From Candidatus Sumerlaeia bacterium (GTDB lineage: Bacteria; Sumerlaeota; Sumerlaeia; SLMS01; JAHLLQ01), in assembly GCA_019634695.1 (NCBI GenBank), contig JAHCAW010000001.1, positions 48,328 through 112,327 on the forward strand: a DNA stretch of 64,000 bases, read 5' to 3'. Below the pieces are notes generated by a model. The model was given only the letters and a program-made list of their open reading frames with translations. It had not been told where the DNA came from and ran no database searches. Numbering within the stretch: the stretch's first letter is position 1; each line of letters begins with the position of its first letter. The position numbers and the translations under genes are program-made. Positions 16,572 to 38,394 of this stretch are shown here, piece by piece.

Positions 16572-16708
16572 CTCCTCCCTCCCTCCTCGGGGGAACCCTT
16601 CTTGCTCCTTGGGGGAGGCAAGCGGGTCCACGTCCGGTCAGTCCCCGTTCTTGTAGCAAGCCGCTCTCCATCGGGCGCGAACGGGGTCCACCCAAGGAAG
16701 GTCACGTG

Positions 16709-18289
16709 ATGAGCGAGAATCCCTCTGCCCCGTCCGCGAGCGCGCCGACTCCGGCGCCGCCGCCGTTGTCGCGCAACCTGATCAGCTATCTCGGCTGGGT
16801 CGTCGTGGTCGTCGTGACGGTGCTGATTGTCGTGTTGGTCACGTCGGACATCCTGTTCCATCGGGAGAATCCGTACAACAGCGTCGTGACGTATCTGGTG
16901 CTGCCGGGCGTGCTGGGCGGCGGCGTGGGGTTGATTCTGCTGGGGGTTCTGGTGGAATGGTATCGCCGGCATCGGCGGGAACCGGGCACGTACCCGACGT
17001 TGCCGACGATCGATCTGAACCTGCACTGGCAACGCCGTCGCCTGATGATCGGGGCGGTGCTGATGAGTCTGTTCTTCGGTGGCTCGGCCATCGGCGTCTA
17101 CCAGTCGTACCACTATACCGAGTCGCCCGAATTCTGCGGGCTCGTCTGCCATAGTGTGATGAAGCCCGAGTACGAAGCCTACCAGCACTCGCCTCACGCG
17201 CGGGTTCTGTGCACGGAGTGTCACATTGGCGGCGGGGCCGATTGGTACGTGAAGTCGAAGATGTCGGGGCTGCGGCAGGTTGTGGCGATGGTGACACAGA
17301 GCTACGAGCTGCCGATCAAGACGCCGGTGCACAACCTGCGGCCGGCGCGCGACACATGCGAGGAGTGCCACTGGCCTGGCAAGTTCAGCGGTTCGAGGGA
17401 GCGGGAGATCTGGCACTTCTCGCCGGACCAGTCGAACACGGCGTTGCGGTACAACCTGCTGATGAAGGTCGGCGGCGGCGAACCCGAGGTCGGCCAGGGT
17501 CACGGCATTCACTGGCACATCAGCTCGGCGGTGACGGTGCGCTACTGGCCGCGCGACGAGCAGCGGCTCGACATCCCGTGGGTCGAGGTCACGGTCGCCG
17601 ACGGCGCCCCGCGCATCTTCCGCTCGCCGGACTTCGCCGGTCAGGATCCCCCGGAGACCGAAATCCGCACGATGGACTGCATCGACTGCCACAACCGGCC
17701 GGCGCACATCTACAAGTCCCCGCGCCACCTGGTGGACCAGTCGCTGGCCGGCGGGCTGCTCGACTCCTCGTTGCCCTACGTTCGGCGCCAGGCGGTGCGG
17801 GTGCTCGAGGCGCGCCACGCCTCGACCGAAGAGGCCCTGGCCGCCATCGAAGCCGACTTCCGCGCCCAGTACGCGACCCGCATGCAGGGCGAAAAGGGAC
17901 GCGAACTCGTCGAGAGCAACATCGCCTGGCTTCAGCGCCTCTACGAGCGCAACTTCTTCCCCGAGCAGAAGGTCGACTGGCGCACCTACCCCAACCACCT
18001 CGGCCACTTCGAGTTCCCCGGCTGCTATCGCTGCCATGACGACAAGCACGCCACCGTCACCGGCGAGACCATCTCCAACAACTGCAACCTCTGCCACGAC
18101 ATGATCGATCAGGCCGAGGGCGAGGCGGCCTACCGCGCGTCCACCTACCACGCCGCCCCGTTCAATCACCCGCGCGGGCTCGGCGACGTCTGGATCGGCC
18201 GCAACTGCACCGACTGCCATGGGCTCGAAGGCGAGCCGCTCCGCGAAGTCACCCACCTGTCCTCCGGATCCCATCCCCCCGCCCGGTAA
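16709..18289 (+). CDS. ImcH-like inner-membrane multiheme cytochrome (3 TM helices, NapC/NirT-like region, 7 heme motifs)
   Basis: RBS AAGGAAGG. There are three N-terminal hydrophobic helices, followed by EFCGLVCH (CX3CH), CTECH, CEECH, CIDCH, CYRCH, CNLCH and CTDCH. Confidence 0.8.
   Translation: MSENPSAPSASAPTPAPPPLSRNLISYLGWVVVVVVTVLIVVLVTSDILFHRENPYNSVVTYLVLPGVLGGGVGLILLGVLVEWYRRHRREPGTYPTLPTIDLNLHWQRRRLMIGAVLMSLFFGGSAIGVYQSYHYTESPEFCGLVCHSVMKPEYEAYQHSPHARVLCTECHIGGGADWYVKSKMSGLRQVVAMVTQSYELPIKTPVHNLRPARDTCEECHWPGKFSGSREREIWHFSPDQSNTALRYNLLMKVGGGEPEVGQGHGIHWHISSAVTVRYWPRDEQRLDIPWVEVTVADGAPRIFRSPDFAGQDPPETEIRTMDCIDCHNRPAHIYKSPRHLVDQSLAGGLLDSSLPYVRRQAVRVLEARHASTEEALAAIEADFRAQYATRMQGEKGRELVESNIAWLQRLYERNFFPEQKVDWRTYPNHLGHFEFPGCYRCHDDKHATVTGETISNNCNLCHDMIDQAEGEAAYRASTYHAAPFNHPRGLGDVWIGRNCTDCHGLEGEPLREVTHLSSGSHPPAR

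Positions 18290-19914: not shown

Positions 19915-19918
<4 letters not shown>
18296..19918 (+). CDS. Cytoplasmic sensor histidine kinase with a Cys-rich sensory region
   Basis: Carries the H-box LLASIAHEIKNPL, N-box LNLILNARDA and G-boxes DTGIGI / GTGLGLAVCRRI, with no TM helices. The true start may be downstream (ATG 18434 or 18476), because the first about 45 codons are low-complexity and contain a palindrome. Confidence 0.8.
18383..18404. promoter_or_regulatory. Perfect palindrome GGTGTGAC-N6-GTCACACC (candidate operator/UAS)
   Basis: Read directly. The same TGTGAC-N6-GTCACA core recurs at 26871-26890 in clearly non-coding DNA. Confidence 0.4.
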
Positions 19919-21396
<1,478 letters not shown>

Positions 21397-21717
21397 GGCA
21401 CGCTCCCACGACCTCGCCCGCACGCGCCCGAAACCGGGTGAGGCTTTCCCGTCACAGTCCAGCCCCTCCACAGCCTCTGCTCCCTTTCGCGCGACTTCGG
21501 CCGGTCGTCGCAGCATTGCCGCCATTGAACTTGCGAATCGACCTCTCCCAAATTCCCCGTCGGGGAAGGATTTTGCTATTCTCTTCCAAGTGTTCGCTGC
21601 TTCGCGGGGGACGTGTGCCCGAAGACCAATCCGGTGTCGGTCGCTCGATCGGGTCCCATACCTCCGCCCCATTCATCGGGTCGTCGGAAACGTGTGCTGA
21701 GAGGGAGGCGCGCCGAG

Positions 21718-24700: not shown

Positions 24701-25581
24701 TCGCCAACCACGAATACCACGGCATCACCTGCTCGGCCTGTCACGATCCGCACAGCGCGAAGAATCCGCACCAGTTGCGGGCGTGGGGCGACTTCGTGAT
24801 TCCGTCGGGCACGCGGCCGTACGGCTCCGGCACCGGCGGCACCTGCTTCCGCTGCCACAACTCGCGCATCGCCAACGCGGAGACCACTTCGCAGACGAGT
24901 TTCCGCGGGGCGCACTACGGAACCCAGGGCGACATGCTGCTCGGCTCGACCGGTGTGTCGTTCGGCCTGCCGTTCTCGCCGAACTCGCCGCACCTTGCCA
25001 CCGTGGACAACACCTGCACGGCCTGTCACATGGCGGAGACGCCGCTGTCCGGGCCGGGCATCATCGAGACGCCGCTTGTCGGCGGACACACCTACTCGAT
25101 GCGCGACACCCGCGGCACGGCCGATCCGTCCGACGACATCATCAACGTGGCCAACGCCTGCCAGCAGTGCCACCTGACGCTCGACAGCTACGACTATCCG
25201 GCGCGGGGCGACTACGACGGCAACGGCATCGTCGAGGGCACGCAGACCGAGGTCGCCGGGCTGCTGCTGATGCTGCGCACCGGCATCCTGGCCACCATGC
25301 CCGGGACGACGGCCAACGCCGCCGGGCGCATCAGCGTCACCACCGCCGCCTTCAGCCAACTGACTCCGGACCAGAAGCGCGCGCTGTACAACTACAACTT
25401 CGTCCATGCGGACGGCAGCCTGGGCGTGCACAACACGGCCTACGCGGTGCAGTTGCTCCAGCGCTCGTACTACGGCGTCTACGGGGTGTCGATCCTGGTC
25501 GACTTCCCGAACATCCACCTGCGCGGCCCCGTGCAGGAACCGATCCCGCGCCCGTCAAGGGACCAATGGCGCGTGCGCTGA
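21718..25581 (+). CDS. Secreted giant multiheme cytochrome c: 18 heme motifs, two homologous halves joined by a Pro/Thr linker
   Basis: The signal peptide is MRTLRIAQAVRAVILTVLLGLLTAPALAQA. Each half carries one CX4CH (CANACCH / CGTGFCH) plus 8 CXXCH. The linker is PPTPSPTPVPTPTPVPTPVP. Confidence 0.9.
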   Translation: MRTLRIAQAVRAVILTVLLGLLTAPALAQAIGRVEVMSVTPRMVAADPNDIFDEVASGLNVVGVEEKVYLSAMALPGQTLGGATWVLRSRPGESNAALSDTTGTLVTLVPDVSGLYIVELTPLNASNQPTTVVRQRIYAGVWVGAGVFNTHADPNPTIPSCANACCHAESNVPRLNVVDRWLDSKHATTLQAHLNGERGNHTTESCLPCHSVGFKKSADNRGFDDIAFDLGFDLAQIATLVQDAVANGNQNFHVLPAALQNHASVQCESCHGPGSHHLGAILEPDRGIAGVNLDTKQCAQCHDSASGFQQGFYQWNASSHPITADLSQGNVATNNTCRPCHTGEGFVYGMVRGEPIPQLGAGQYHGITCSSCHDPHGSEHPHQIRISGAVTLPSGHVFETAGKGGLCAKCHNTRSTNGDNTAITSFRGAHYGPQADVLLGVNMAHFNLPVYDNSAHTTIVKDTCVTCHMAPGVGGGPGQTTPPLVGEHTYSMRDDRGTADPSDDIINAANACASCHPELTDTYNRLARGDYDGDGVREGIQTEVEGLLALLRPGLLALPGASLSASGTISVTQANWNTWSQDQRRAVYNHNMAVNDKSRGIHNTSFTVQSLQRSYFGAYGRTITDDFPKIDLRGPVQPTSIVPPTPSPTPVPTPTPVPTPVPEYLAVIDLVGVSPRTVDTDTSGRFDEAATGLRAVGVGEKVYMQARKVDNAVISYRWSILSRPSGSTAGLSATTGEAITFRPDRRGVYIVRLTPETSGKAVIDVYDQRIYAADFVGVGKIDPESTVAPRAPQCGTGFCHGGDSGNADLNVLQDWLQTKHASKLQRDLNGETVAFYSVSCLPCHTVGFNDHFQAINNGFDDIATRLSFDLNQIPALVADARQNGNRNFNQLPAELQGHSSVQCESCHGAGSLHPSNLTAADKGIDGANLGFSACAKCHDSASGFQQGFYQWSSSSHPVTADLSQGSVAANNTCRPCHTGEGFVAVYGDGKPIPQLANHEYHGITCSACHDPHSAKNPHQLRAWGDFVIPSGTRPYGSGTGGTCFRCHNSRIANAETTSQTSFRGAHYGTQGDMLLGSTGVSFGLPFSPNSPHLATVDNTCTACHMAETPLSGPGIIETPLVGGHTYSMRDTRGTADPSDDIINVANACQQCHLTLDSYDYPARGDYDGNGIVEGTQTEVAGLLLMLRTGILATMPGTTANAAGRISVTTAAFSQLTPDQKRALYNYNFVHADGSLGVHNTAYAVQLLQRSYYGVYGVSILVDFPNIHLRGPVQEPIPRPSRDQWRVR

Positions 25582-26113: not shown

Positions 26114-26764
26114 GTGCCCCCACTCATGAGACCCCTTTCGCGAGGCGCCCTGCTGGCCTCCGCCCTTGTCGTTGGGGCACTTCTGGTGCCGCGACCCACG
26201 CCGTCGGCCATCGAGGGATCCGCCCACGACTTCTCCGCCGTCGATCCCAGCCAGCAGATCTGCATCTTCTGCCACACGACGCACCGCGCCGACACCTCCG
26301 TCGTCGACGCCCCGCTGTGGAACCACGCGGTCACCAACCGCACGTACCAGCTCTACAACAGCCCGACGCTCGACGCGACGGTCTCGCAGCCCTCGGGCGC
26401 CTCGCGACTGTGCCTCTCCTGTCACGATGGCACGGTGGCCGTGGATTCCTACGGCGGACGCGCCGGCGTCATCTTCCTGGGCGGCCGGTTGGCGATCGGT
26501 GCCGACGAGTTGACCAACGACCACCCGGTCTCGTTCCTCTACGACGACGCGCTGGCGGCGGCCGACGGCGAGCTGCACCGCCCGTCCGCAACGCCCTCGG
26601 GTCTGGGCTCCACGATCGACGACGACCTGCTGTTCAACGGCCGGCTCGAGTGCTCAAGCTGCCATGACGTGCATAACGGCGCCTCGGCCGAGGCCATCGG
26701 CGAGAAGCTCCTCGTCATCACCCAAGTGGGCAGCCAACTGTGTCTCACCTGTCACGACAAGTGA
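26114..26764 (+). CDS. Periplasmic tetraheme cytochrome c
   Basis: Has a signal peptide and the motifs CIFCH, CLSCH, CSSCH and CLTCH. The N-terminal about 100 aa (CIFCHTTH..APLWNH..LCLSCHDGTVA) is homologous to the start of 36697..38394. Confidence 0.85.
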   Translation: MPPLMRPLSRGALLASALVVGALLVPRPTPSAIEGSAHDFSAVDPSQQICIFCHTTHRADTSVVDAPLWNHAVTNRTYQLYNSPTLDATVSQPSGASRLCLSCHDGTVAVDSYGGRAGVIFLGGRLAIGADELTNDHPVSFLYDDALAAADGELHRPSATPSGLGSTIDDDLLFNGRLECSSCHDVHNGASAEAIGEKLLVITQVGSQLCLTCHDK

Positions 26765-26890: not shown

Positions 26891-27230
26891 TCGCGGGCGC
26901 CGGCCTCGGGAATGGCCCGGGGCGGGTGCATGGAGAGGGCACGCTGGGCGGACGGCGAATTCTGGTTGGCCTCGCCAGGAGTCTCCGGGATCGCGTCGGC
27001 CCTGCTCCCGGGGGAACGACAAAGCCGCACCAACCGAAAGAGTTTCAACACTCGGCAAGGCGATTGAGGGGGTGGCCGGTGGCGAACGGGCCGGTCGCTT
27101 GTGACCTGCGGGCCTCCGGCGTTCTGCGCGCCCGCTCGTCCGCCACTGAATAAGGCCCGCAAGGGGGGACTTGGGCACGATCCTTTCAAGGAAATCGGAT
27201 AATCCAAGTATTGCTTGTCGGAGGCGCTCC

Positions 27231-28337
27231 ATGTCGGCGAAATCGGCCCCCCACAGCAGGCTCCTCGGCTGGGCCGTGGCGCTGGTCGCCATTGGCCTGC
27301 TGACGGGTTGTGCGGCCTCGTCGGCGCGGTCGGTGGCCGAGGCGACGCCCGTGGTCTTCCCGGCTCCGCCGGCCCCTGCGCGCGTCCAGTACCTGGGCGG
27401 CATCTCCACGCCGGACGACCTGCCGCGGGCCCGCAGCAAGTTCGCCGACTTCGTCCTCGGCCCGGAGCCGACCAGCTACCCGCTGGCCAAGCCGATCAGC
27501 GCGACGCTGCAGGGTTCCCGCCTGTACGTGTGCGACACGGTGCTGAACTCGGTGCTGGTCTACGACCTGGTCAGCGGGGAGGCGCGTCCGCTGGAGGGCG
27601 ACCGCGGGATCGGCAAGATTCGCCAGCCGAACAACCTGTGCTTCGACAGCGCCGGGCGCCTGTACGTGGCGGACAAGGTGCGGCAGGCGGTGGTGGTGTA
27701 CAATCCGGACGAGTCGTTTCTTGCGGCGTGGGGTCGGCCGGGCGAGTTCGCGCCGGTGGCCGTGGCGGTCCACGGCGACGAGATCTTCGTGTGCGATTCG
27801 AACCGGCACGAGATCGAGGTCTGGAGCCGGCAGGACGGGTCGCGGCTTCGGACGATCGGTGGACTGGGCAACGAGCCGGGCAAGTTCTTCATCCCGACGC
27901 AGGTGGCAGTGGACGCGGGCGGGGTGCTGCACGTGACGGATACGGGCAACTTCCGCGTGCAGCGACTGACACGGACGGGCGAGCCGCTGGCCGTGGTCGG
28001 CGGACCGGGGCGGGCGTTGGGCAAGTTTGCGTGGCCCAAGGGGATGGACCTCGACGGCCGCGGGCGCCTGTACGTGGCGGACTCGCGGTTTGCGAACGTG
28101 CAGATTTTCGACGCGCAGGGGCGCCTGCTGCTGTTCTTCGGCGGGCCGGGCCCGGACGGCGGTCATCTGGACCTGCCGGCCGGCGTGCGGCTGGTTCCTT
28201 GGCCGCGCGGCGTGCCGTGGCTCGAGCAACGCCTGATGGCGGGCTTCGATCCGGAGTTTCTCGCCGTCGTCGTCAGCCAGCAGGCGCAGTACTTCGTGAA
28301 CTTCTTTGCCATCGCGCGTGAGGAGGCGTCGCCGTGA
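27231..28337 (+). CDS. NHL-repeat (six-bladed beta-propeller) lipoprotein
   Basis: Has the lipobox LLTGC. Repeated blades are of the type P.g.a.D..G.lYVaD..n..vqvfd (for example GRLYVADKVRQAVVVY and GRLYVADSRFANVQIFD). Confidence 0.85.
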   Translation: MSAKSAPHSRLLGWAVALVAIGLLTGCAASSARSVAEATPVVFPAPPAPARVQYLGGISTPDDLPRARSKFADFVLGPEPTSYPLAKPISATLQGSRLYVCDTVLNSVLVYDLVSGEARPLEGDRGIGKIRQPNNLCFDSAGRLYVADKVRQAVVVYNPDESFLAAWGRPGEFAPVAVAVHGDEIFVCDSNRHEIEVWSRQDGSRLRTIGGLGNEPGKFFIPTQVAVDAGGVLHVTDTGNFRVQRLTRTGEPLAVVGGPGRALGKFAWPKGMDLDGRGRLYVADSRFANVQIFDAQGRLLLFFGGPGPDGGHLDLPAGVRLVPWPRGVPWLEQRLMAGFDPEFLAVVVSQQAQYFVNFFAIAREEASP

Positions 28338-28930
28338 AGCGAGCCCCGGCGCGGCATCGTGCGATTGCGGCGGCGGCTGTGGTGGCCGCCGCAGTGCTCG
28401 CGGCGTCGTGCTCGCCGGAGTCGCGCTATCGCGTGCTGAGCGCCGTGTTCGACGGCGTGCCGCCGCCGGCGGGATTCGAGACGCCCGCGCCGGGCATCGT
28501 CGTTCCGTCGGTCGAGGTGCCCGGCAGCGGATTCCTCGACGACCTGCGCACGCTGCGCGAGCAGCGCCCGCCGCGCGACACCACGCCCGTGATCCTGTCC
28601 GTCCACAAGCCGGTGGCCGAGCGCAAGTGCCGCGAGTGCCACGGCGATCCCGAGGACGTCGCGATCATCCCGCACGACGCCCGCCTGTGCGACAAGTGCC
28701 ACCTGGACCAGCGCCGCGAGCAGGGCTGGGACCACGGACCGATCAATCTGGGCACGTGCATTCCGTGTCACACGCCGCATCGCTCGCGTCACAAGAGCCT
28801 GCTCTCCGAGCCGCTGCCCGACCTCTGCCTGCACTGCCACAAGGACGTGTCGCCCGACGGGCCCGACTACCACGTCGTCGCGAACTTCGCCGACTGCAGC
28901 GCGTGCCACGATCCCCACCGGATGTATTGA
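28334..28930 (+). CDS. Pentaheme cytochrome c lipoprotein
   Basis: Its start forms a GTGA overlap with the NHL gene. It has the lipobox LAASC and the motifs CRECH, CDKCH, CIPCH, CLHCH and CSACH. Confidence 0.85.
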   Translation: MKRAPARHRAIAAAAVVAAAVLAASCSPESRYRVLSAVFDGVPPPAGFETPAPGIVVPSVEVPGSGFLDDLRTLREQRPPRDTTPVILSVHKPVAERKCRECHGDPEDVAIIPHDARLCDKCHLDQRREQGWDHGPINLGTCIPCHTPHRSRHKSLLSEPLPDLCLHCHKDVSPDGPDYHVVANFADCSACHDPHRMY

Positions 28931-28931
28931 G

Positions 28932-31031
28932 ATGCCCCAGGATTCCGTTCCACGCTCCCGTCACTCCGCGCCCGGCATGCACGCCGCCCTGGTGGGGCTT
29001 GTGTTGCTGCTGGTCGCCGCGGCATGGGCGGAGCCCTACGAGGACCGCTGCTATCGGTGCCATGGGCAGAGCTGGATCGCGCAGCGCAGCCCGACGGCGC
29101 TGGCCGCGATGGTGCGCGCGCCCGAGGGCGGAGAGCGCCGCATTCGCGACGTGTCGGAGATTCCGGGACTGCTGGTGACGGGCGAGGCGTTCGCCGCCTC
29201 GGCGCACGGCGGCCTGGCGTGCACGGAGTGCCATCCGGGCGTCGACACGCTGCCGCACAACCAGGTGGTCGCCAGCCTGTCCTGCGTGGCCTGCCATGCG
29301 GGCGCGGCGAACGACGTGGCCATGGGGATGCACGCGCCGACGGTGGAGGGAACGCCGAACTGCGCGCACTGTCACGGCGATGCCCATGCGATTCGCAAGT
29401 ACGGCGGGCCGCGGACGTACACGCGGGCGATCGAGATGGTCGAGCGCTGCTCGGCCTGTCACGGCGACGTGTCGCACGGCAAGTTCTCGCCGGCCGAGAC
29501 GTTCCACGACAGCATCCACGGCGAGGCGCTGTTCAAGAAGGGGCTGGTCTCGGCGCCGATGTGCACGGACTGCCACGGGCCGCACGCGATGTTCACGGCC
29601 GCGGATCCCCGCAGCCCCGTGCATCCGCTGAATGTTCCCGAGACATGCGGCGCGTGCCATCAGGGCGTGGTGCCGGTGTTCCTGAACAGCGTGCACGGGC
29701 GCAACCTTCTGGCCGGGCGCGCCGACGCGGCGTCGTGCACGAGCTGCCACCACAGCCACGGCGTGGCCGGCGCGGACACGACCTTCGCGATCGACGTGGT
29801 GGCCGAGTGCTCGCACTGCCACATCAAGCTGGGCGAGTCGTACCTGCGCAGCTATCACGGCAAGGCGACGCAACTCGGCGGGCGCAACGCGGCGGTCTGC
29901 TCGAAGTGCCACGGCGCGCACGACATCCAGCCGGCGTCGGATCCGACGTCGAGGATTGCCGCCGGCAACCTGGTGGCGACCTGCGGCGAGTGTCACCCGG
30001 GCGCCAACGAGAACTTCGTCAAGTACATCGCGCACGTCGACTACACGGATCGCTCGCAGAATCCGGTGGTCTTCTTCACCTTCTGGGGCATGACGATCCT
30101 GCTGTGCAGCGTGCTGCTGGTGTTCATCCCGCACTCGCTGCTCTGGTTCCAGCGGACGCTGGGCGAGCGGCTGCGCTCGAAGGGCCACGGGCACGGTTCC
30201 GGGCGAATGGTGCGCCGGTTCAACCGCATGCACCGGCTGACGCACGCGCTGATCATCATCAGCTTCATGGGCCTTGTGGCGACGGGCTTCCCGCTGAAGT
30301 ACAGCTACACGGGCTGGGCGCAGGCGATCGCCTCGCTCTTCGGCGGCATCCACGCGATGGGCATCCTGCACCGGTTGTTCGCCGTGGTGACGTTCGCCTA
30401 CGCGGGTCTGCACCTGGGCTTCCTTGCGTGGTTCTTCTGGAGGAAGTGCCCGGCGCCGCGTTGGCGCTACATCATCGGGCCGGACTCGATGCTGTTCTCG
30501 CTGAAGGACTTCAAGGACTTCATCGCGATGATGAAGTGGTTCTTCCGCCGGGGACCGCGGCCGCAGTTCGACCGCTGGGCATACTTCGAGAAGTTCGACT
30601 ACTGGGGCGAGATCTGGGGCGTGATCGTCATCGGCGGCAGCGGCCTGCTGCTCTGGTTCCCGACGCTGTTCACGAAGGTGCTGCCCGGCTGGATTCTCAA
30701 CGTCGCGATGGTGATTCACAGCATCGAGGCGCTGCTGGCCGCGTCGGTGATCTTCCTCGTCCACTTCTTCAACACGCACCTGCGGCCGGAACGCTTCCCG
30801 ATCGACCTGACGATGTGGAGCGGCCAGATGACCGAGGAGGAGATGAAGATCGAACGGCCTGCCGAGTACGCGCGGCTGGTCGAGTCCGGTGCGCTCGAGG
30901 AACGACTCGAGGAGCCCATCTCCGCCCGGCGCCGCCTGCTCGGCATTGTCCTGGGCATGACCGCCTTCCTGATCGGCATCGCCTTGATCGTCCTGGCGAT
31001 CCAGACCGAAATCCTCAACCTCGTCAAGTGA
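28932..31031 (+). CDS. CbcL-like fusion: 11-heme periplasmic cytochrome c domain + C-terminal His-rich integral-membrane b-type cytochrome domain (HydC/FdnI-like)
   Basis: There are 11 CXXCH motifs in aa 1-375. About 5 TM helices with conserved histidines follow (IPHSLLWF, MHRLTHALII, ILHRLF..GLHLGF, VIHSIEALL..LVHFFNTH). Confidence 0.8.
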   Translation: MPQDSVPRSRHSAPGMHAALVGLVLLLVAAAWAEPYEDRCYRCHGQSWIAQRSPTALAAMVRAPEGGERRIRDVSEIPGLLVTGEAFAASAHGGLACTECHPGVDTLPHNQVVASLSCVACHAGAANDVAMGMHAPTVEGTPNCAHCHGDAHAIRKYGGPRTYTRAIEMVERCSACHGDVSHGKFSPAETFHDSIHGEALFKKGLVSAPMCTDCHGPHAMFTAADPRSPVHPLNVPETCGACHQGVVPVFLNSVHGRNLLAGRADAASCTSCHHSHGVAGADTTFAIDVVAECSHCHIKLGESYLRSYHGKATQLGGRNAAVCSKCHGAHDIQPASDPTSRIAAGNLVATCGECHPGANENFVKYIAHVDYTDRSQNPVVFFTFWGMTILLCSVLLVFIPHSLLWFQRTLGERLRSKGHGHGSGRMVRRFNRMHRLTHALIIISFMGLVATGFPLKYSYTGWAQAIASLFGGIHAMGILHRLFAVVTFAYAGLHLGFLAWFFWRKCPAPRWRYIIGPDSMLFSLKDFKDFIAMMKWFFRRGPRPQFDRWAYFEKFDYWGEIWGVIVIGGSGLLLWFPTLFTKVLPGWILNVAMVIHSIEALLAASVIFLVHFFNTHLRPERFPIDLTMWSGQMTEEEMKIERPAEYARLVESGALEERLEEPISARRRLLGIVLGMTAFLIGIALIVLAIQTEILNLVK

Positions 31032-31053: not shown

Positions 31054-32391
31054 ATGAACAGCCCCCTGACGCGATTCAGCCTCCTGCTGGCGATCACCCT
31101 GCTCGCGCTGGCGCTGCAAGGCCCGGCGCGCGCCAACACGCAGATCACGCTCGGCGCCTCGTGCGTGACCGGCGAGTGCCACGGCGACGTGACCGCGCAT
31201 CAGTTCCTGCACGGCCCCGTCAACCTGAAGCAGTGCCAACCCTGCCACGAACCCATCGGCGGCCGGCACGAGTTCGCACCGCTGACCGACAGTCGCAGCC
31301 TGTGCATCACCTGCCACGAGGTGGACCAACCGAAGGCCTTCGTCCATGGACCGTTTCAGACCGACTGCGTGGTCTGTCACAGTCCGCACGGCGACTCGAA
31401 CCGGCACTTCGTCAAGGGGGGCGAGGGAGCGGCCTCGTGCACCATGTGCCATGACAGCGTGACGCGCGGCATGACGCACCTGCACGGGCCGGTGGCCGTC
31501 GGCGAGTGCCTCGTCTGCCACGAGCCGCACCAGTCGAACCACAAGGGCCTGCTGATCGACGCGCGCCCGCAGCTCTGCATGGGATGTCACATCGACGTGG
31601 CGCACGAGATCGAGCGCGCGGTGGTCGTGCACCAGCCGGTCGAGATGGAATGCGCCGGCTGCCACAATCCGCACGGCGGCACGGCGGCGTTCTTCCATCC
31701 GGCCGAGGGCCCGGACCTGTGCCGCTCGTGCCATGGCGGCTTCCTCGAGGAGGCCATGCAGGCTCCCTTCCCGCACGGCGCGATGACCGAAGGCAAGGCC
31801 TGCCAGAATTGCCACGCTCCCCATGCCTCGGCCCAGCAGGGCCTGCTTGGCACGGACACGATGGACCTTTGTCTCTCGTGCCACAGCTCCGAGATTCGCC
31901 ATGCACGCGGCACGATTCCCAACATCGCGGCGCAGCTTTCCTCGGCGACGTTCCTGCACGGTCCGATCAGCGAGCGCAACTGCGTCGCCTGCCACAAGGC
32001 GCACGGCTCCGACGTCGCCAGCATCCTGACGAAGCCCTTCCCGCGCGAGTTCTACGCGCCCTACAAGGAGGGTGCCTACGACATGTGCTTCGAGTGCCAC
32101 GACAACACGCTTGTGCTGAACGAGCGCAGCACCGCCACGCAGTTCCGCGACGGCGACCGCAACCTGCACTTCCTGCACGTCAATCGCGAGAAGGGGCGCA
32201 CCTGCCGGGCCTGTCACTCCGAGCACGCCTCCGTGCAGCCCCACCACGTTCGCACCGAAGTTCCGTTCGGCCGCTGGATGATGAAGGTCCAGTTCACGAA
32301 GACGGAGACCGGCGGAACGTGCGAGACGGGCTGCCACATTCCGTACGGGTACGACCGCGTGCGGCCGGCGGCGGGGAGCACGACGCCATGA
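31054..32391 (+). CDS. Periplasmic multiheme cytochrome c with 15 motifs (13 CXXCH + N-terminal CX4CH + C-terminal CX3CH)
   Basis: Has a signal peptide, then CVTGECH, 13 CXXCH and a final CETGCH. The C-terminal block RDGDRNLHFLHV..CRACH..TGGTCETGCH parallels that of 15513..16571. Confidence 0.9.
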   Translation: MNSPLTRFSLLLAITLLALALQGPARANTQITLGASCVTGECHGDVTAHQFLHGPVNLKQCQPCHEPIGGRHEFAPLTDSRSLCITCHEVDQPKAFVHGPFQTDCVVCHSPHGDSNRHFVKGGEGAASCTMCHDSVTRGMTHLHGPVAVGECLVCHEPHQSNHKGLLIDARPQLCMGCHIDVAHEIERAVVVHQPVEMECAGCHNPHGGTAAFFHPAEGPDLCRSCHGGFLEEAMQAPFPHGAMTEGKACQNCHAPHASAQQGLLGTDTMDLCLSCHSSEIRHARGTIPNIAAQLSSATFLHGPISERNCVACHKAHGSDVASILTKPFPREFYAPYKEGAYDMCFECHDNTLVLNERSTATQFRDGDRNLHFLHVNREKGRTCRACHSEHASVQPHHVRTEVPFGRWMMKVQFTKTETGGTCETGCHIPYGYDRVRPAAGSTTP

Positions 32392-33218
32392 TGCGACTGC
32401 GCTCGGCGCGGAACCATCGCGAGGCCCTGCTCGCCGGCATGCTGGCGTTGCTGCTGGCCGTGGCGACGGGTCGGCCAGCCGTCGGCGATCTCGTGCCGCC
32501 ACTCGATGGCGCGGGAATCGTCGTGAAGGCGATGCCGAAGGATGCGCCGACGACCGGGCCGGTGGTGCTCGTCTTCCTGAAGCCGGGCGATGCGCACGCG
32601 GCTCGGATCGTCGAGGACCTGCATGCGCTGCGCGGGCGCGACGAGCGCCTGGCGCGGTCCAGCTCCGTTGTGGCGATCATCTCGCGCTTTCCGGGCGGGG
32701 GAGCGCCGGCTCTGCCGACCTTTCCGAAGGACTGGCGCGTTCTGCACGACACGCAGGACACGCTCTACACGGCCTATCGGATCATCGCGACGCCGAGCGT
32801 GGCAGTTGTCGGAAGCGACAAGCGGCTGGTCGGGTTCCACCCGGGATACGGACCGGCGCTGGCCGCGGCGATTCGGCGCGACCTGATGCTGGCGATCGAC
32901 GGTGCCGGTGCACTGGTGACTCCGACGCCCTCGCGCGACGGCATGAACGTGCAGATGGGTCGGGCACTGGCGCGGCGCGGTCTGTGGGAGCGCGCGCTGG
33001 GCTACTATCGCAAGGCGGCCGAGGAAGGCGAACTCTCCGCCGAGGCGCAGCTCGAGATGGCCACGCTGCACCTGGAGCTGGGCGAGCGCGACGACGCGCT
33101 GCGTCTGCTCGAGGCACTCGCGCCCGCTCACGCGAACCTGCCCGGCATCGAGGATCTGCGCCGCCGATTGACCGAGTCCGTGGAGACGCCGCTCCCGAAA
33201 CCGCCACCCGTGCCGTGA
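32388..33218 (+). CDS. Exported thioredoxin-fold (TlpA-like) protein lacking the CXXC site, fused to C-terminal TPR
   Basis: Its start forms an ATGA overlap. It has a signal/anchor segment. VVLVFLKPGDAHAAR occupies the position where redoxins have WCxxC, and the TPR-like tail is LARRGLWERALGYYRKAAEEG. Confidence 0.6.
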   Translation: MMRLRSARNHREALLAGMLALLLAVATGRPAVGDLVPPLDGAGIVVKAMPKDAPTTGPVVLVFLKPGDAHAARIVEDLHALRGRDERLARSSSVVAIISRFPGGGAPALPTFPKDWRVLHDTQDTLYTAYRIIATPSVAVVGSDKRLVGFHPGYGPALAAAIRRDLMLAIDGAGALVTPTPSRDGMNVQMGRALARRGLWERALGYYRKAAEEGELSAEAQLEMATLHLELGERDDALRLLEALAPAHANLPGIEDLRRRLTESVETPLPKPPPVP

Positions 33219-33254: not shown

Positions 33255-35306
33255 ATGCTTCCCCGTCCACTCCTCGCGCTCGCCGCTGTCGTCCTGCTGC
33301 TCGGCATGACCAGCGTGGCCCGTGCGCAGGCGGACCGCTTTCGCCGCGAGTATCCCGTGCAGGCCCTTGCCGTCACGGACACCGACGCGGAACTGGGCAT
33401 CGAATACAACTACTTCGGCGAGACGATCCGGCGCTCCGGCGGCGGACGCCTGCGCTACTCGAACCACTTCCTGCAGGAATACTACCAGGGGCGCGCGCGT
33501 GGATACATCTACCATCCGCGGCTGCTCACCTACTCGGCGCAGGTGCGCCTTGGGCTTTCGCAGCAATGGCTGCGTCGCGACTCCGACGGCGACAGCTCCT
33601 CGTCGTTCGACAACGATGAGCTGCTGGGCTACGACCTGCGCCTGGACTTCTTCAAGGACCACCCGCTGAGCGGCAGCGTCTTCGCACGTCGCGACGAGCG
33701 CATCCTGATGGGCCTGTTCGTGGACCGCTATCTCGTGCGCACCGAAGCCCAGGGCGGCACGCTGCGGTGGAAGAACGACATCGCTCCGATGAACCTGAGC
33801 GTCACGCGCTCGAAGGTCGAGGAGTTCGGCATCAACAGCCACAGCACCACGCTGACCGACACGCTCGAGTACAACCTGCGCCACGACATCGGCCGCCGCA
33901 GCCGCACCGACGTGCAGGCGCGCGTGCAGAGCATCGAGCGCGACTTCGAGGCGGAAACCTTCCGTGGCCGCGTCGAGCGCGAGACCGAACTCGACACGCG
34001 CACCCTCCAGGCCACCAACCGCCTGAATCTCGACGCGCAGGGCCGCAGCACCCTGCGCTCCACAGTGCGATACCACCAGCAGCGCAACGGGCAGGACCTG
34101 ACCACGCTCTATTGGCAGGAGCGCCTCCAGCTCCAACACTCGCGCAACCTGCGCAGCTACGCCGAGGCGAGCTTCCTGCGCAACGAGTACTCCGACGGGC
34201 GCAAGAACGACACCTATCGCGCCGAGATCGGCGTCGATCACCAGCTCTACGAGAGCCTGCGCACGCACTTCGACATCCATGGCCGGCGCACGGTGGCCCA
34301 GATCACCGAAGAGGATCGCTACGGCGCGACGGCGCAGCTTCAGTACCGCAAGAAGACGGGGCTCGGCGTGTTCAGCGCCGGCTTCTCGAAGACGCTCGAC
34401 CAGGTGGAGCGCACCGGCGGCGCGGCCTCGGACGACATCCTCGACGAGGCGCTGACGCTCTTCATCGCCGTGCCGACGTTCCTCGGCCGCGGCGACGTCA
34501 TCGCCCCCAGCATCGTCGTCACCGACGTGACGAACACGATCATCTACACCGAAGGGTTCGACTACGAGATCGTGCGGCAGGGTCGGCGCACGGGCCTGCG
34601 CATCGTGCCGGGCGGCCTGCTGGCCGACGGCGACCAAGTGCTCGTGGACTATCGCATCGAGGTGGACGGCGACGTCTCCTACATCGCCGACGACCAGACG
34701 ATCTACCTGCGGCACGACTTCGAACGCGGGATCAAGGGACTGTCGCTCTACGCGCAGCGCCACGACCTGCGGGCCCGACGCATCGACGCGGCCGACGACT
34801 TCGGCATCGTCGAGTTCACCGACCAGATGGTCGGCCTGCGGCAGGAGTGGCGCCAGTTCGCGTTCGTGAGCGAGTATCAGGAGTTCGACGACGACCTCGG
34901 CGGGTTCACGCAGTGGCGCAACCGGCTGGAGGGAAACCATCGGCTCAGCTCGCGCACGCGCCTTGGCTGGAACGTCGGCATCAACAAGACGGACTACAGC
35001 TCGAACCGCGACATCAGCGGTCAGGACGAGAGCGACTATCGCTTCGCCGGCGTGTTCGTCGATGGGCGCTTCTCGAACCGCGGCTTCTGGCGCGTGGAGG
35101 CGCGGACGATGCGCGAGACGGGGCGGACGGAGAGCACCACGAACGGCGTGCTGGCGCGTGCGGGCTTCGAGTGGCGCCGCATGACCATCGAGGGCGGCGC
35201 GCGCTTCGAGCAGTACGAGGTCTTCGACACCGAGCGCGACCGCGTGCACGTCTTCGTGCGGATGCGTCGCAGCCTGGGCCGCCGCCCGATGGAGGGCCGC
35301 CGATGA
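33255..35306 (+). CDS. Candidate outer-membrane beta-barrel (porin-like) protein, 683 aa
   Basis: The signal peptide is MLPRPLLALAAVVLLLGMTSVARAQ. The protein has no Cys or heme motifs. It shows long runs of alternating hydrophobic/polar residues rich in Y, R, D and G (LRYSNHFLQEYY, TLEYNLRHD, AEIGVDHQLY), and its cluster context fits. The fold is not verified. Confidence 0.55.
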   Translation: MLPRPLLALAAVVLLLGMTSVARAQADRFRREYPVQALAVTDTDAELGIEYNYFGETIRRSGGGRLRYSNHFLQEYYQGRARGYIYHPRLLTYSAQVRLGLSQQWLRRDSDGDSSSSFDNDELLGYDLRLDFFKDHPLSGSVFARRDERILMGLFVDRYLVRTEAQGGTLRWKNDIAPMNLSVTRSKVEEFGINSHSTTLTDTLEYNLRHDIGRRSRTDVQARVQSIERDFEAETFRGRVERETELDTRTLQATNRLNLDAQGRSTLRSTVRYHQQRNGQDLTTLYWQERLQLQHSRNLRSYAEASFLRNEYSDGRKNDTYRAEIGVDHQLYESLRTHFDIHGRRTVAQITEEDRYGATAQLQYRKKTGLGVFSAGFSKTLDQVERTGGAASDDILDEALTLFIAVPTFLGRGDVIAPSIVVTDVTNTIIYTEGFDYEIVRQGRRTGLRIVPGGLLADGDQVLVDYRIEVDGDVSYIADDQTIYLRHDFERGIKGLSLYAQRHDLRARRIDAADDFGIVEFTDQMVGLRQEWRQFAFVSEYQEFDDDLGGFTQWRNRLEGNHRLSSRTRLGWNVGINKTDYSSNRDISGQDESDYRFAGVFVDGRFSNRGFWRVEARTMRETGRTESTTNGVLARAGFEWRRMTIEGGARFEQYEVFDTERDRVHVFVRMRRSLGRRPMEGRR

Positions 35307-35397
35307 GAGGGAAGCTCGATGGGATGCGCGGAATCGAACCTGGACTGTCGCCAGGTGAAGCATATCTCGCTGCAACTCAACGAATCCCGATGCCCTT

Positions 35398-35569
35398 AAC
35401 TGTGGCTCGGGCGTCCCGCCCGAGTTCCGCCACGCCACGCGCATGGTGCCGATGCCTGCGTTCTGGCGTACCTCCTCCTATATGGATTCCAACAGGCTGT
35501 CTTGTAGCGCGTGACGTCCACTACTTGGCGAGATTCCCGGAACTCGGGCGAGACGCCCGAGCCACAGTT
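35398..35569. repeat. 32-nt inverted repeats (31/32 match) flanking a 108-nt lower-GC spacer; each arm contains its own 8-bp hairpin
   Basis: The arm aactgtggctcgggcgtcccgcccgagttccg (35398-35429) matches the reverse complement of 35538-35569. The internal hairpin is ctcgggcg-N3-cgcccgag. Confidence 0.75.
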
Positions 35570-35629
35570 TTACCGCCTGCCGCCAGCGCATGCATTGGTC
35601 TAGTTCTTCCCTCCAACCTCCGAAGTCGT

Positions 35630-36700
35630 GTGACGCGCGCGCTGGCACTGCTTGCGCTGCTCCTCGTGCTGGCTTCGTGCGCCGGCACGCGTCGCGATCC
35701 GTTTGCGACGACGGCGGGAATCGCTCCCGTCTGGCCTCCGCCGCCCGAGCCGCCGCGCGTGGAGCATGTGCTGTCGATCGCCGACCATCGCGATCTGTTC
35801 GAGGAAGGTGGTTTCGGCCGGTCGCTGGCACGCCTTGTCGGTGGCCCGGTCGACTCGCGGCTTGTGCGGCCCTATGCCATCGCGGTGGATGCGAAGCTCG
35901 GGCTGCTGGTGACGGATCCGGGCAATCAGTGTGTGCATCGGTTCGACTGGGACTCGCGGCGCTATCGCCGGATTGGCGAGTCGTTGGCGGGCGGCCTGCC
36001 GTCGCCTGTCGGCGTGGCTGTCGCGCGGGACGGGTCGATTCTCGTGGCGGATTCACGCCTCGCATCGATCGAACGATTCAGCTCCGACGGGCGCCATCTT
36101 GGACGCTTCGCGCCGGGACATCCATTCCGTCGGCCGGCTGGCATCGCCGTCGATGAAGCGAGCGGCGAGGTCTACGTTGCCGACGTGCTCGCGCATCAGG
36201 TGCTGGTCTTCGGCGCCGACGGGGCGTTGCAGCGCGCGCTGGGCGGCAACGGCAGCGCACCGGGCCGGTTCAACTTCCCGACGCATCTCGGGCTGGACGG
36301 ATCGGGCGGGCTGCTGGTGGCCGACGGGATGAACTTCCGCGTGCAGCGCCTGGCGCGCGATGGCGCGGCGCTGACGGTGTACGGGCGCGTCGGCACGGCG
36401 CGCGGCGACTTCGCGCACCCCAAGGGCGTCGCCGCATGGGACGCGGAGACGTTCGTCGCGGTCGAGGGCCTGCACGACGCGCTGGTGTTGTTCGATGGAG
36501 AGGGCCGCCTGCTGCTGGCGATCGGCGAGGCGGGTTCGGGGCCGGGGCAGTTCTGGCTGCCGGCCGGACTCGCGGCGGACCGCGCGCGCGGCCTGCTCTT
36601 CGTCGCCGACAGTTTCAACAGTCGGGTGCAGGTGTTCCGCCTGCTGCCCGCGCCCGCCGTGTCCGACCCCGCGCAGGAAGAGAAAGGACCGACCCCATGA
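35630..36700 (+). CDS. NHL-repeat beta-propeller lipoprotein (second copy)
   Basis: GTG start and lipobox VLASC. Blades include GLLVTDPGNQCVHRFD, GSILVADSRLASIERF, GEVYVADVLAHQVLVF, GLLVADGMNFRVQRL and GLLFVADSFNSRVQVF. Confidence 0.8.
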   Translation: MTRALALLALLLVLASCAGTRRDPFATTAGIAPVWPPPPEPPRVEHVLSIADHRDLFEEGGFGRSLARLVGGPVDSRLVRPYAIAVDAKLGLLVTDPGNQCVHRFDWDSRRYRRIGESLAGGLPSPVGVAVARDGSILVADSRLASIERFSSDGRHLGRFAPGHPFRRPAGIAVDEASGEVYVADVLAHQVLVFGADGALQRALGGNGSAPGRFNFPTHLGLDGSGGLLVADGMNFRVQRLARDGAALTVYGRVGTARGDFAHPKGVAAWDAETFVAVEGLHDALVLFDGEGRLLLAIGEAGSGPGQFWLPAGLAADRARGLLFVADSFNSRVQVFRLLPAPAVSDPAQEEKGPTP

Positions 36701-38394
36701 ACCGCCTGCCGCTTCTCGCGCTGGGGGCGCTGCTCGTTGTCCTCGCAACGCGGGGCCTCACGCAGACCAGCATCGTCGATACGCCGCACAACCTCTCGTC
36801 GAGCGGCCCCGGCGCCATCCGCGCGCTCGACGAGGATCGCGTCTGCGTCTTCTGCCACACGCCGCACGGCGCGCGCACCGAGGCGCCGCTGTGGAATCGA
36901 CGCGACTCGAGCGCCACCTATCAGCCCTACGACAGCCCCACGCTCGTCGCGCGACCGGGCCAACCCACCGGCTCCTCGAAGCTCTGCCTCTCGTGCCACG
37001 ACGGCACCGTCGCGCTCGGCGATCTCGTCTCGCAGTCGACGCCGATCGACTTCGCCGGCGGCACGCGCATGCCGGCCGGTCGCTCGCTCATCGGCACGGA
37101 CCTGCGCGACGATCATCCCATCTCCTTCGCGTACTCCGACGCCCTGTCGGGCGGCAGCGCACGCCTGGCCGCGCCGCACTCCTGGGACCCGGCCATCCAG
37201 CTCGACGCCGCCGGCATGCTCCAGTGCACCACCTGCCACGATCCGCACGACAACCAGTGGGGGCGCTTCCTCGTCATGCACAACGCCGAGGCCCGCCTTT
37301 GCCGCGAGTGCCACATCATGCCCGAGTTCGACAACACGCCGCACGCGCTGTCGAACGCCACATGGAACGGCGTCGGCACGACGCCGTGGCCGCACACGGA
37401 GTTCGACAACGTGGCGACCAACTCGTGCCTGAACTGCCATCGCTCGCACCACTCGCCGCGCGGCCAGCACCTGCTGACCGGCGCCACCGACGCGGCCACC
37501 TGTCTGGCGTGCCACGACGGCAGCGTCGCGCGCTCCAACGTCCAGGTCGCCCTGCGCAAGCCCCATCGCCATCCGGTGCTCGAGACGTCGGCCGCGCACG
37601 TGCCGGGCGAGGTCCTCACCGGTTTCGCCGATCACGTCACCTGCTCGGACTGCCACAGCCCGCATCACATGACGACGTCGAAGGCCGACGCGCCGATGGT
37701 GCCCGGCACGATGACCGGCGTCTCCGGCGTGACGATCGACGGCACGCCGATCGCCGAGGCGATGTTCGGCTACGAGGTCTGCCTGAAGTGCCATGCCGAC
37801 GACGCCTCGGCCACCTTCCGCGGCATCGAGCGCCAGGTGCGGTCCAACGGCGTGCGCCGCGCGTTCGCCTCCGACAGCCCCTCGTTCCATCCCGTGGCGT
37901 TCACGGGCCGGAACCCGGACGTGCCGAGCTTGATCGCGCCGCTGAACGAGCAGTCCCAGATCGCGTGCACGGATTGCCACGGCGACGACGCGACGGCGCC
38001 GGGCTCGGGCGCCGCCGCCCCGCACGGCTCGCAGCACGAGTTCCTCCTGCGGCGCGAGTACCGCACCGGCTCGCGGGTCTCCGAGAGTCCGACGGCCTAC
38101 GCGCTTTGCTACGGCTGCCACGACCGGTCGGTCGTGCTCAGCGACCGCAGCTTCGTGGGCCATCGCCGCCACGTCGTCGACGAGCGCACGCCCTGCTCGG
38201 CCTGCCACGACGCGCACGGCATCGACGGCGCCGCCGGCAACGCGGTCAACAACGCGCGCCTGATCAACTTCGACCTGTCGGTCGTCTCGCCGCTGCCGCT
38301 GACGGGCGAATTGGAATACGTCTCGCACGGCTCGGGAACGGGCTCGTGCACACTCAACTGCCACGGCAAGGACCACAACCGGCAGGACTACTGA
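36697..38394 (+). CDS. Periplasmic/secreted multiheme cytochrome c with 12 motifs (11 CXXCH + terminal CX3CH)
   Basis: Its start forms an ATGA overlap with the NHL gene, and it has a signal peptide. Motifs are CVFCH, CLSCH, CTTCH, CRECH, CLNCH, CLACH, CSDCH, CLKCH, CTDCH, CYGCH, CSACH and CTLNCH. Confidence 0.9.
   Translation: MNRLPLLALGALLVVLATRGLTQTSIVDTPHNLSSSGPGAIRALDEDRVCVFCHTPHGARTEAPLWNRRDSSATYQPYDSPTLVARPGQPTGSSKLCLSCHDGTVALGDLVSQSTPIDFAGGTRMPAGRSLIGTDLRDDHPISFAYSDALSGGSARLAAPHSWDPAIQLDAAGMLQCTTCHDPHDNQWGRFLVMHNAEARLCRECHIMPEFDNTPHALSNATWNGVGTTPWPHTEFDNVATNSCLNCHRSHHSPRGQHLLTGATDAATCLACHDGSVARSNVQVALRKPHRHPVLETSAAHVPGEVLTGFADHVTCSDCHSPHHMTTSKADAPMVPGTMTGVSGVTIDGTPIAEAMFGYEVCLKCHADDASATFRGIERQVRSNGVRRAFASDSPSFHPVAFTGRNPDVPSLIAPLNEQSQIACTDCHGDDATAPGSGAAAPHGSQHEFLLRREYRTGSRVSESPTAYALCYGCHDRSVVLSDRSFVGHRRHVVDERTPCSACHDAHGIDGAAGNAVNNARLINFDLSVVSPLPLTGELEYVSHGSGTGSCTLNCHGKDHNRQDY

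Follow-up and report, generated by a model that had tools for sequence, protein, structure and literature searches.

The window analyzed here is a stretch of 64,000 nucleotides (nt) from a Candidatus Sumerlaeia bacterium (GenBank assembly GCA_019634695.1, contig JAHCAW010000001.1, positions 48,328 to 112,327 of the forward strand), and all positions below refer to this window. At 28932..31031 on the plus strand, it carries a complete gene, from an ATG start to the included stop codon in the open reading frame (ORF) list, for a 699-residue fusion of a multiheme cytochrome c domain to a membrane b-type cytochrome domain. The G+C content at third codon positions of this gene, 0.89, is that expected for a real gene in a window of 68.8% G+C, where spurious ORFs are common, and a database search returned more than 3,265 homologs of the product. 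These relatives fall into a subfamily of about 700 amino acids (aa) at 53 to 97% identity and a group of about 900 to 1,050 aa at about 40%. Three segments follow one another along the protein. Residues 1 to 34 (28932..29033, plus strand) form a signal peptide or anchor with the hydrophobic core LVGLVLLLVAAAWA, recognized by hydropathy and by a helix at residues 15 to 31 of the structural model, with cleavage likely after AWA. Residues 35 to 377 (29034..30062) make up the periplasmic multiheme domain, and residues 378 to 699 (30063..31028) the membrane domain, in which a linker helix (TM0) precedes a four-helix core resembling FdnI (TM1 to TM4) and a C-terminal helix (TM5), as assigned by an AlphaFold model, Foldseek, a profile match, and the positive-inside rule.

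An earlier note on this DNA, made from the letters alone, had described the protein as a CbcL-like fusion with 11 CXXCH motifs in its N-terminal 375 residues. All 11 are present within the first 355 residues, starting at positions 40, 97, 118, 144, 173, 211, 239, 269, 293, 323, and 351. Chance clustering can be ruled out: shuffled versions of the same 375 residues contain 0.1 motifs on average and 2 at most, and 22 of the 24 cysteines of the whole protein lie in this part. The N-terminal part also matches the Pfam families Cytochrome_C7 (E = 1.1e-15) and Cytochrom_c3_2 (E = 2.3e-9). Besides the motif histidines, the domain carries H92, H109, H134, H152, H196, H218, H255, H276, H309, H330, and H368; 10 of these are invariant in a 35-sequence alignment, and the eleventh, H109, is present in 22 of 22 eleven-heme members. 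Because there are 11 conserved candidates for distal ligands, and no conserved methionine in the c domain across the 35 aligned sequences, all 11 c-type hemes are probably bis-His ligated, in agreement with measurements on the nine CbcL hemes (PMC9129911).

Among the members of the ∼700-aa subfamily that were inspected, each full-length protein carries exactly 11 motifs, compared with 18 to 23 in the longer relatives. The intervals between hemes in the fusion protein are 57, 21, 26, 29, 38, 28, 30, 24, 30, and 28 residues, and after the first interval, they agree with those of the final ten hemes in a 19-heme relative, itself apparently the product of an internal duplication of eight hemes. 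The 19-heme protein found in Zixibacteria (L079:3865-6672) shows a repeated heme spacing that suggests such a duplication.

The relation to CbcL was examined by sequence comparison. The loci used were the best 80 of more than 571 in a scan of reference genomes; Geobacter sulfurreducens is not among these 80, and its CbcL (GSU0274) was represented by proteins of Geomonas propionica (L009, 616 aa) and Trichlorobacter thiogenes (L032, 615 aa), each with nine CXXCH motifs. The T. thiogenes protein agrees in length and heme positions with WP_078790975.1, the CbcL homolog that stands beside GSU0274 (619 aa, nine hemes, six transmembrane helices) in Table S2 of PMC6295460, and the ortholog alignment of PMC9129911 takes in both species. 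In BLASTP, the fusion protein is 37% identical to the G. propionica protein and 35% identical to the T. thiogenes protein over about 612 aa (E = 2e-122 and 5e-122, respectively), and this bears out the CbcL-like character claimed for it; the family cutoff applied in PMC6295460 was a BLAST E value below 0.01. From the first heme through to the last helix, the sequences align collinearly. Each of the nine heme motifs of CbcL finds a partner, and the two additional motifs, C269xxCH and C293xxCH, share one 41-aa insert between CbcL hemes 7 and 8 (residues 258 to 298; 29703..29825, plus strand, by MAFFT alignment), which also holds the invariant H276. The expectation that CbcL has nine hemes, and the fusion protein two more, is thus accurate, with the extra pair confined to a single insert. 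A second insert relative to the CbcL homologs, of 34 aa, follows heme 1.

The similarity extends through the membrane domain. Motifs common to the fusion protein and the CbcL homologs are GPDS, RGP.P.F.RW.Y.EKFD, GGSGL.LWFP, HS.EALLA, and HFFNTH.RPE.FP, and the legible parts of the supplementary alignment of PMC9129911, which is of poor quality, give GPDSLM and FRGPKPTFERW.YWEKFD for CbcL. When those CbcL fragments were used as bait, only C-terminal fragments of 80 to 230 aa from Geobacteraceae and Desulfuromonas were retrieved, one of which is 44% identical to the fusion protein over 224 aa (E = 5e-59). CbcL-type C-terminal fragments of 136 to 206 aa were also found called as separate genes on contigs of 0.5 to 2.9 Mb (P0137, P0155, and P0175), and one separately called fragment belongs to Desulfuromonas thiophila; these may be split genes, frameshifts, or gene-calling artifacts. 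Across the b core, the fusion protein shares a mean identity of 43% with the nine-heme proteins. Its identity of 35 to 37% to two members of the CbcL cluster compares with 57.6 to 100% within that cluster in PMC6295460 and more than 65% in PMC9129911. Sequence thus places the fusion protein in the CbcL/MtrH/MtoC family but not among the CbcL orthologs in the strict sense, because of this low identity and a heme count of 11 rather than 9.

The 11-heme proteins do not form a single clade; that possibility was rejected when they proved not to be monophyletic in a quick neighbor-joining tree of the b core. The 45 nearest relatives (b-core identity of at least 54%) have 11 hemes throughout, except that a few truncated sequences count fewer, and nine other 11-heme proteins lie farther off, at 40 to 47%. 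We therefore favor the view that 11 is a recurrent heme count within the family, as its distribution over the tree suggests, rather than the mark of a clade. A six-heme variant, extended at its N terminus by a further domain of about 150 aa, was also seen, in a record titled Campylobacter jejuni (L078:2120-4186).

In the AlphaFold model, which was built from 35 sequences and has a mean predicted local distance difference test score (pLDDT) of 83.9, with most membrane helices at about 90, the C-terminal part of the protein crosses the membrane six times (residues 378 to 415, 432 to 456, 473 to 505, 551 to 575, 587 to 616, and 665 to 698). Hydropathy agrees, so that the "about 5" helices estimated earlier have to be corrected to six. 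Lysine and arginine residues number 7, 11, and 7 in the cytoplasmic loops and 0 and 1 in the periplasmic loops; because the positively charged loops alternate in this way, the heme c domain is assigned to the periplasm, H480 and H596 to the vicinity of the periplasmic face, and H438 and H611 to that of the cytoplasmic face.

The earlier note had further proposed that the histidines of this domain are placed as in HydC/FdnI-type di-heme b subunits. A profile was built from the membrane domains of the fusion protein, six CbcL-type proteins, one stand-alone b subunit, and four database relatives; against the PDB, it matched one family, FdnI of Escherichia coli formate dehydrogenase-N (1KQF_C, E = 3.7e-5). 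Foldseek, given the model of the fusion protein, returned the same chain as its sole significant PDB match (1kqf_C, probability 1.00, TMt 0.73, 238 columns). In a sequence search of the PDB with the full-length protein, only weak multiheme matches were obtained and no close relative of solved structure. An FdnI-type set of ligands was defined as one histidine in helix I, one in helix II, and two in helix IV about 14 residues apart. The profile alignment pairs FdnI His18, His57, His155, and His169, with residues counted in the alignment, with H438 in TM1 (codon 30243..30245), H480 in TM2 (30369..30371), and H596 and H611 in TM4 (30717..30719 and 30762..30764), all on the plus strand; the last two are 15 residues apart, with one gap in the alignment. 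In FdnI, we take His57 and His155 to hold the periplasmic heme bP, and His18 and His169 the cytoplasmic heme bC, so that H480 and H596 are the predicted ligands of a periplasmic-side heme b, and H438 and H611 those of a cytoplasmic-side one.

Conservation was assessed in 253 family members at about 40% identity, taken from 75 genome loci and from database matches, stand-alone b subunits included. The membrane part contains 11 histidines, six of which (H401, H438, H480, H596, H611, and H616) are 90 to 100% conserved in this set. H596 and H611 are histidine in all 253 sequences, H480 in 99%, and H438 in 95%, the remainder being gaps. The proposed placement thus holds: the four FdnI ligands align with invariant residues, and neither an absence of the bis-His pairs nor a predominance of non-redox proteins among the closest homologs, both of which were looked for, was found. 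H401 in TM0 (codon 30132-30134) and H616 (30777-30779), also on the plus strand, are nearly invariant (90.5% histidine, with 23 gaps and one alanine, and 98%, respectively) and have no counterpart among the FdnI ligands; they may take part in a quinol or proton site or bind an additional cofactor. H474 is poorly conserved (14%), and H494 (63%) is kept in the ∼700-aa subfamily but not in the CbcL-type proteins.

Between TM2 and TM3, a family-specific cytoplasmic loop of about 50 aa, together with the start of TM3 (IIGPDSM...RGPRPQFDRWAYFEKFDYWGEIWG; 30471..30620, plus strand), is conserved in the family and common to the CbcL homologs. Its pattern, GPDS...RGP.P.F.RW.Y.EKFDY, is invariant, and the loop is absent from FdnI. 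The EKFDY end aligns where Q113 of FdnI begins helix III, the counterpart of TM3. The quinone pocket of FdnI presumably lies at this point, around Q113 and the start of helix III, and the inhibitor 2-heptyl-4-hydroxyquinoline N-oxide (HQNO) is reportedly bound next to His169 in the 1KQF structure. The loop is therefore a candidate for a quinol pocket on the cytoplasmic (N) side, and by analogy with FdnI, the position of EKFDY is consistent with oxidation of quinol on that side.

When the b domain by itself was searched exhaustively, 2,262 representatives of 50%-identity clusters were found at an E value of at most 1e-3, including 357 at 1e-30 or below. In length, the matches listed extend from about 185 to 300 aa, for short proteins that stand alone or are partial, to above 1,100 aa, for fusions. 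A stand-alone b subunit of 271 aa was seen in a metagenome-assembled genome (MAG) of Nitrospirota (L075:5848-6663).

The fusion gene lies in a tightly packed row of plus-strand genes. It begins 1 nt past the stop codon of a gene for a 198-aa five-heme cytochrome with a lipobox-like LAASC (28334..28930, by motif count and synteny), which is preceded, with a 4-nt overlap, by a gene for an NHL-repeat beta-propeller with a lipobox-like LLTGC (27171..28337; Pfam NHL, E = 1.5e-16, and synteny). Past its own stop codon, 22 nt lead to a gene for a 445-aa cytochrome with 13 CXXCH and two variant motifs (31054..32391; Paired_CXXCH, E = 1.9e-58), partially similar to MtrA/DmsE. A TPR protein follows (32388..33218, with the start at 32319 or 32388 according to start analysis; Pfam TPR_19 and synteny), then a predicted outer-membrane beta-barrel of 683 aa with a signal peptide (33255..35306; AlphaFold and Foldseek), a second NHL-repeat beta-propeller (35303..36700; Pfam NHL, E = 9.3e-27), and a multiheme cytochrome of about 565 aa with a signal peptide (36697..38394), for which 11 CXXCH motifs and one variant were counted on a longer ORF from 36436. 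The operon thus has two NHL propellers, and NHL proteins recur in the cytochrome clusters named Uet and Occ and in those of D. ferrophilus. The gene order is kept in two other assemblies, around homologs that are 60 and 53% identical to the fusion protein.

Upstream, also on the plus strand, the locus annotation gives a four-heme protein (26114-26764) and, before it, a 1,322-aa protein with 16 CXXCH and two variant motifs (21613-25581), which has partial similarity to domains II and IV of MtrC/MtrF and may be a surface or matrix cytochrome; a 1,287-aa counterpart is encoded in locus L081. A sensor histidine kinase (18296-19918) and a sigma-54-dependent response regulator (19888-21396) stand directly upstream of the cytochrome genes, and because the pair recurs at the same position in L081, a dedicated regulation of the operon is suggested. 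Eleven kilobases upstream of the fusion gene, an ImcH-like inner-membrane cytochrome (16709..18289, plus strand, with the longest ORF from 16421; Pfam NapC/NirT, E = 8.6e-12) has three transmembrane helices, one CX3CH motif, and six CXXCH motifs and is a candidate for a second quinol oxidase, so that the two types of quinol oxidase used by Geobacter at different redox potentials are both found in one locus here. Finally, on the minus strand, a nine-heme cytochrome (15513-16631) and CcsA and ResB of System II cytochrome c maturation (12034-15479) adjoin the cytochrome cluster.

The resemblance of this operon to an electron conduit was also part of the initial description, and the predicted barrel lends it substance. 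The model of the 683-aa protein (pLDDT of 86.6) consists of a signal helix and, after it, some 30 long antiparallel strands, and it matches 302 PDB chains at an E value of at most 1e-3, those listed being mostly outer-membrane barrels. Among the five matches with the lowest E values, MtrB of the Shewanella Mtr complex (6r2q_B) has the highest TM-score, at 0.42 to 0.44. An extra small beta domain occupies about residues 402 to 470, and the gene is flanked by those of the 13-heme and ∼11-heme cytochromes. No Pfam family was matched, and the only NCBIfam match, to an unrelated model for phage tail tubes, was weak (E = 0.0026) and fell far short of the cutoff. Of just 28 homologs in the database, the closest with a name is 73% identical and comes from a MAG of Candidatus Sumerlaeota, and by sequence, the barrel appears to represent a narrowly distributed, undescribed family. 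The curated MtrA/DmsE models were passed by no component of the operon; for the 445-aa cytochrome, TIGR03508 (DmsE family) gave 115 bits (E = 4e-33) against a cutoff of 192. The comparison of models supports an operon that is conduit-like in architecture only, with a resemblance that does not reach the level of sequence families.

Taken together, we consider it likely that the fusion protein, as a member of the CbcL/MtrH/MtoC family, works in the inner membrane as a bc-type quinol:cytochrome c oxidoreductase, most likely handing electrons of the quinone pool on to a series of cytochromes that leads to the cell exterior. Computation establishes or strongly supports the domain order, the topology, the set of conserved ligands, and the operon. 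A Sec-exported 11-heme domain in the periplasm is joined through the linker helix TM0 to an FdnI-like four-helix bundle followed by a sixth helix, with one heme b predicted near the periplasmic face, between H480 and H596, and a second near the cytoplasmic face, between H438 and H611. Menaquinol would be oxidized beside the cytoplasmic-side heme b, at a site formed partly by the GPDS...EKFDY loop, and protons would be released into the cytoplasm. The two b hemes would carry the electrons across the membrane into the 11-heme wire, from which they could pass by way of the co-operonic periplasmic cytochromes to the complex of barrel and cytochromes and on to an extracellular acceptor. The membrane potential would help to push the electrons outward, an arrangement that would suit low-potential acceptors at the expense of energy conservation, with no gain to the proton motive force, as has been proposed for CbcL. 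Oxidation of menaquinol on the N side has been proposed for CbcL as well (bioRxiv 10.1101/2023.05.03.539133), and the periplasmic domain of CbcL reduces PpcA in vitro (PMC9129911).

Several points weigh against this reading. The first concerns the curated models of the membrane domain. Of the profile searches proposed in the earlier note, those with multiheme models gave the matches described above, but the one for the b domain fell short: PF01292 (Ni_hydr_CYTB) aligns with residues 429 to 612 at 18.8 bits, below the gathering threshold of 30.1, and TIGR01583 (formate dehydrogenase gamma) at 22.8 bits, below its cutoff of 115.85 (E = 7e-5, residues 427 to 646 on model positions 2 to 198 of 204). 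A PF01292 match is precomputed for several close homologs of the fusion protein. By themselves, the PF01292 and TIGR01583 matches are suggestive only, and such subthreshold scores for curated b561 and FdnI models are what would be expected if the membrane domain were a mere anchor without hemes, its histidines incidental. This explanation is improbable to the point of being negligible, given the 95 to 100% conservation of the four FdnI-aligned histidines, which extends to stand-alone b subunits, and the fold match to FdnI; a non-redox anchor was rejected on the invariance of the ligand histidines. Further, the heme ligands of FdnI are those reportedly assigned by Jormakka et al. (2002), and the quinol site is placed only by its analogy to FdnI and by conservation.

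The remaining point against it is the direction of electron flow, which cannot be read from the sequence because members of the CbcL/MtrH/MtoC family occur in Fe(III) reducers as well as Fe(II) oxidizers (PMC6295460). The same protein with the same cofactors could work in reverse, as a quinone reductase of the kind proposed for MtoC, taking up electrons from an extracellular donor such as Fe(II), a cathode, or a partner cell and delivering them to the quinone pool. No sequence feature separates the oxidizing from the reducing members (PMC6295460), and the content of the operon, with its NHL, barrel, multiheme, TPR, and CcsA/ResB components, resembles the Uet electron-uptake cluster of Tenderiales. 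However, in the partly annotated window, no gene close to the operon was recognized as one for Cyc2, Rubisco, or an oxidase, and with a quinone site on the N side, electrons arriving from the periplasm would have to reduce quinone against the membrane potential. The presence of an ImcH-like gene in this locus also speaks for the outward direction: homologs of ImcH were found only in Fe(III) reducers in a 2018 survey (PMC6295460), and because of this, the balance tilts to outward transfer, leaving the reverse direction an alternative to be taken seriously but an unlikely one.

Outward transfer might also end within the periplasm. Quinol-oxidizing membrane cytochromes of the NapC/NirT type, a family that likewise supplied the Pfam match of the ImcH-like protein, feed periplasmic reductases. 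CymA belongs to this family as well (PMC6295460). By the same pattern, the fusion protein would serve as quinol dehydrogenase for a soluble periplasmic reductase of nitrogen, sulfur, or metalloid oxyanions, with another role for the barrel and the cytochromes, and a terminal extracellular reductase is not provable from sequence. However, the conserved operon contains no gene for a catalytic reductase, and the genes that accompany the fusion gene in three genomes encode multiheme cytochromes, a large barrel, and NHL propellers; a periplasmic acceptor is accordingly regarded as very improbable, and a quinol oxidoreductase serving extracellular electron transfer (EET) is retained as the preferred reading.

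A more far-reaching combination of these observations is tentative and, taken as a whole, rather doubtful: the conserved locus of about 27 kb (∼12.0 to 38.4 kb) would be a complete, self-contained EET pathway under sigma-54 regulation, with an additional site formed by H401, H616, and the invariant loop in the fusion protein. Such a locus could offer two alternative exits for quinol electrons, one of the ImcH type and one of the 11-heme CbcL type, could bring its own cytochrome maturation genes, and could include a sequence-novel outer-membrane module of barrel, NHL, and TPR proteins. H401, H616, and the loop could form a quinol or proton site on the cytoplasmic side, or even a third heme site, without a counterpart in FdnI; if true, this would explain how the CbcL family uses the membrane potential for low-potential acceptors. 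In a limited literature search, no report of EET in Sumerlaeota was found.

Only three bacterial links between the quinone pool and EET have been described. The CbcL family is among them, and both a full-length structure and a biochemically defined quinol site are still outstanding for it; the locus is a candidate for such work. The operon, which reaches from the quinol module to the outer-membrane barrel, is convenient for heterologous expression and structural studies. Mutagenesis of the four ligand histidines, H401, H616, and the RW.Y.EKFDY loop, all invariant or nearly so, would test the proposed oxidation of quinol on the cytoplasmic side.

Comparison with known systems indicates that the class is not new: the architecture, the count of 11 hemes, and the clustering with conduit genes are all in the literature (PMC6295460), and the two extra hemes and the operon setting, which had at first been singled out as unusual, are both documented for the family. 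The 2018 survey lists 138 CbcL/MtrH/MtoC homologs from 15 phyla, with 3 to 23 heme motifs, 416 to 1,034 aa, and usually six transmembrane helices, and many are encoded beside cytochrome genes or inside mtrAB/mtoAB clusters. Its Table S2 includes at least a dozen 11-heme proteins of about 650 to 760 aa, from Opitutus, Lacunisphaera, Verrucomicrobia, Planctomycetes, Lentisphaerae, Dadabacteria, Omnitrophica, a deltaproteobacterium, and a mine-drainage metagenome; examples are Oter_2603 of Opitutus terrae (729 aa), PAW67162.1 of Opitutae (706 aa), OQB81828.1 of Planctomycetes (709 aa), and WP_069963319.1 of Lacunisphaera (722 aa) (PMC6295460). Compared by catalog data, these proteins share with the fusion protein the 11 CXXCH motifs, the six helices, and a closely similar heme spacing (57, 22, 30, 28, 43, 28, 30, 25, 41, and 28 in the Planctomycetes protein). 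The closest relatives of the fusion protein (53 to 97% identity), in contrast, are MAG proteins, one of them labeled Candidatus Sumerlaeota, a phylum absent from the 2018 list. What is new is modest: a further family member from a little-known lineage that is probably Sumerlaeota-like, an unusually complete operon, and a sequence-novel barrel.

CbcL of G. sulfurreducens and its Desulfuromonadales orthologs share with the fusion protein the domain order, the six helices, the conserved histidine set, and the motifs of the cytoplasmic loop. The fusion protein differs in having 11 hemes instead of 9, 699 instead of 619 residues, the 41- and 34-aa inserts, an identity of 35 to 37%, an H494 kept in its own subfamily only, and a gene placed inside a 10-gene conduit-type operon. 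CbcL is required for the reduction of acceptors below about -100 mV, and its c domain, at -194 mV, has a potential lower than that of the menaquinone couple. Compared by description, MtoC and MtrH of Fe(II)-oxidizing and Fe(III)-reducing Betaproteobacteria belong to the same family, have the same architecture, and are likewise encoded within conduit clusters (mtoAB/mtrAB), but they have nine hemes with another spacing (40, 25, 51, 31, 31, 25, 30, and 28 in Daro_1404) and partners of the MtrAB type.

FdnI (1KQF chain C) and HydC/HyaC-type subunits have the four-helix di-heme core in common with the fusion protein, and the four ligand histidines align. Conversely, FdnI shares only about 16% identity with it, is a separate subunit without a c domain, and reduces menaquinone, whereas the fusion protein adds TM0, TM5, and the conserved ∼50-aa cytoplasmic loop and is predicted to work in the opposite direction. 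CbcBA (GSU0593-0594), by its description, is likewise a low-potential quinol oxidase in which a di-heme b module works together with a multiheme c one, but it consists of two polypeptides, with seven hemes and a four-helix b subunit. Finally, by gene content, the Uet cluster of Tenderiales, the Occ cluster of Candidatus Dechloromonas occultata, and the D. ferrophilus clusters share NHL propellers and multiheme cytochromes with the operon described here, and Uet in addition has an outer-membrane barrel, a TPR protein, and flanking maturation genes of the CcsA/CcsB type (ccsAB). In the description of Uet, electrons enter the quinone pool through alternative complex III (ACIII) and bc1 and not through a product of the cluster, whereas here modules of both the CbcL and the ImcH type are encoded within the locus.

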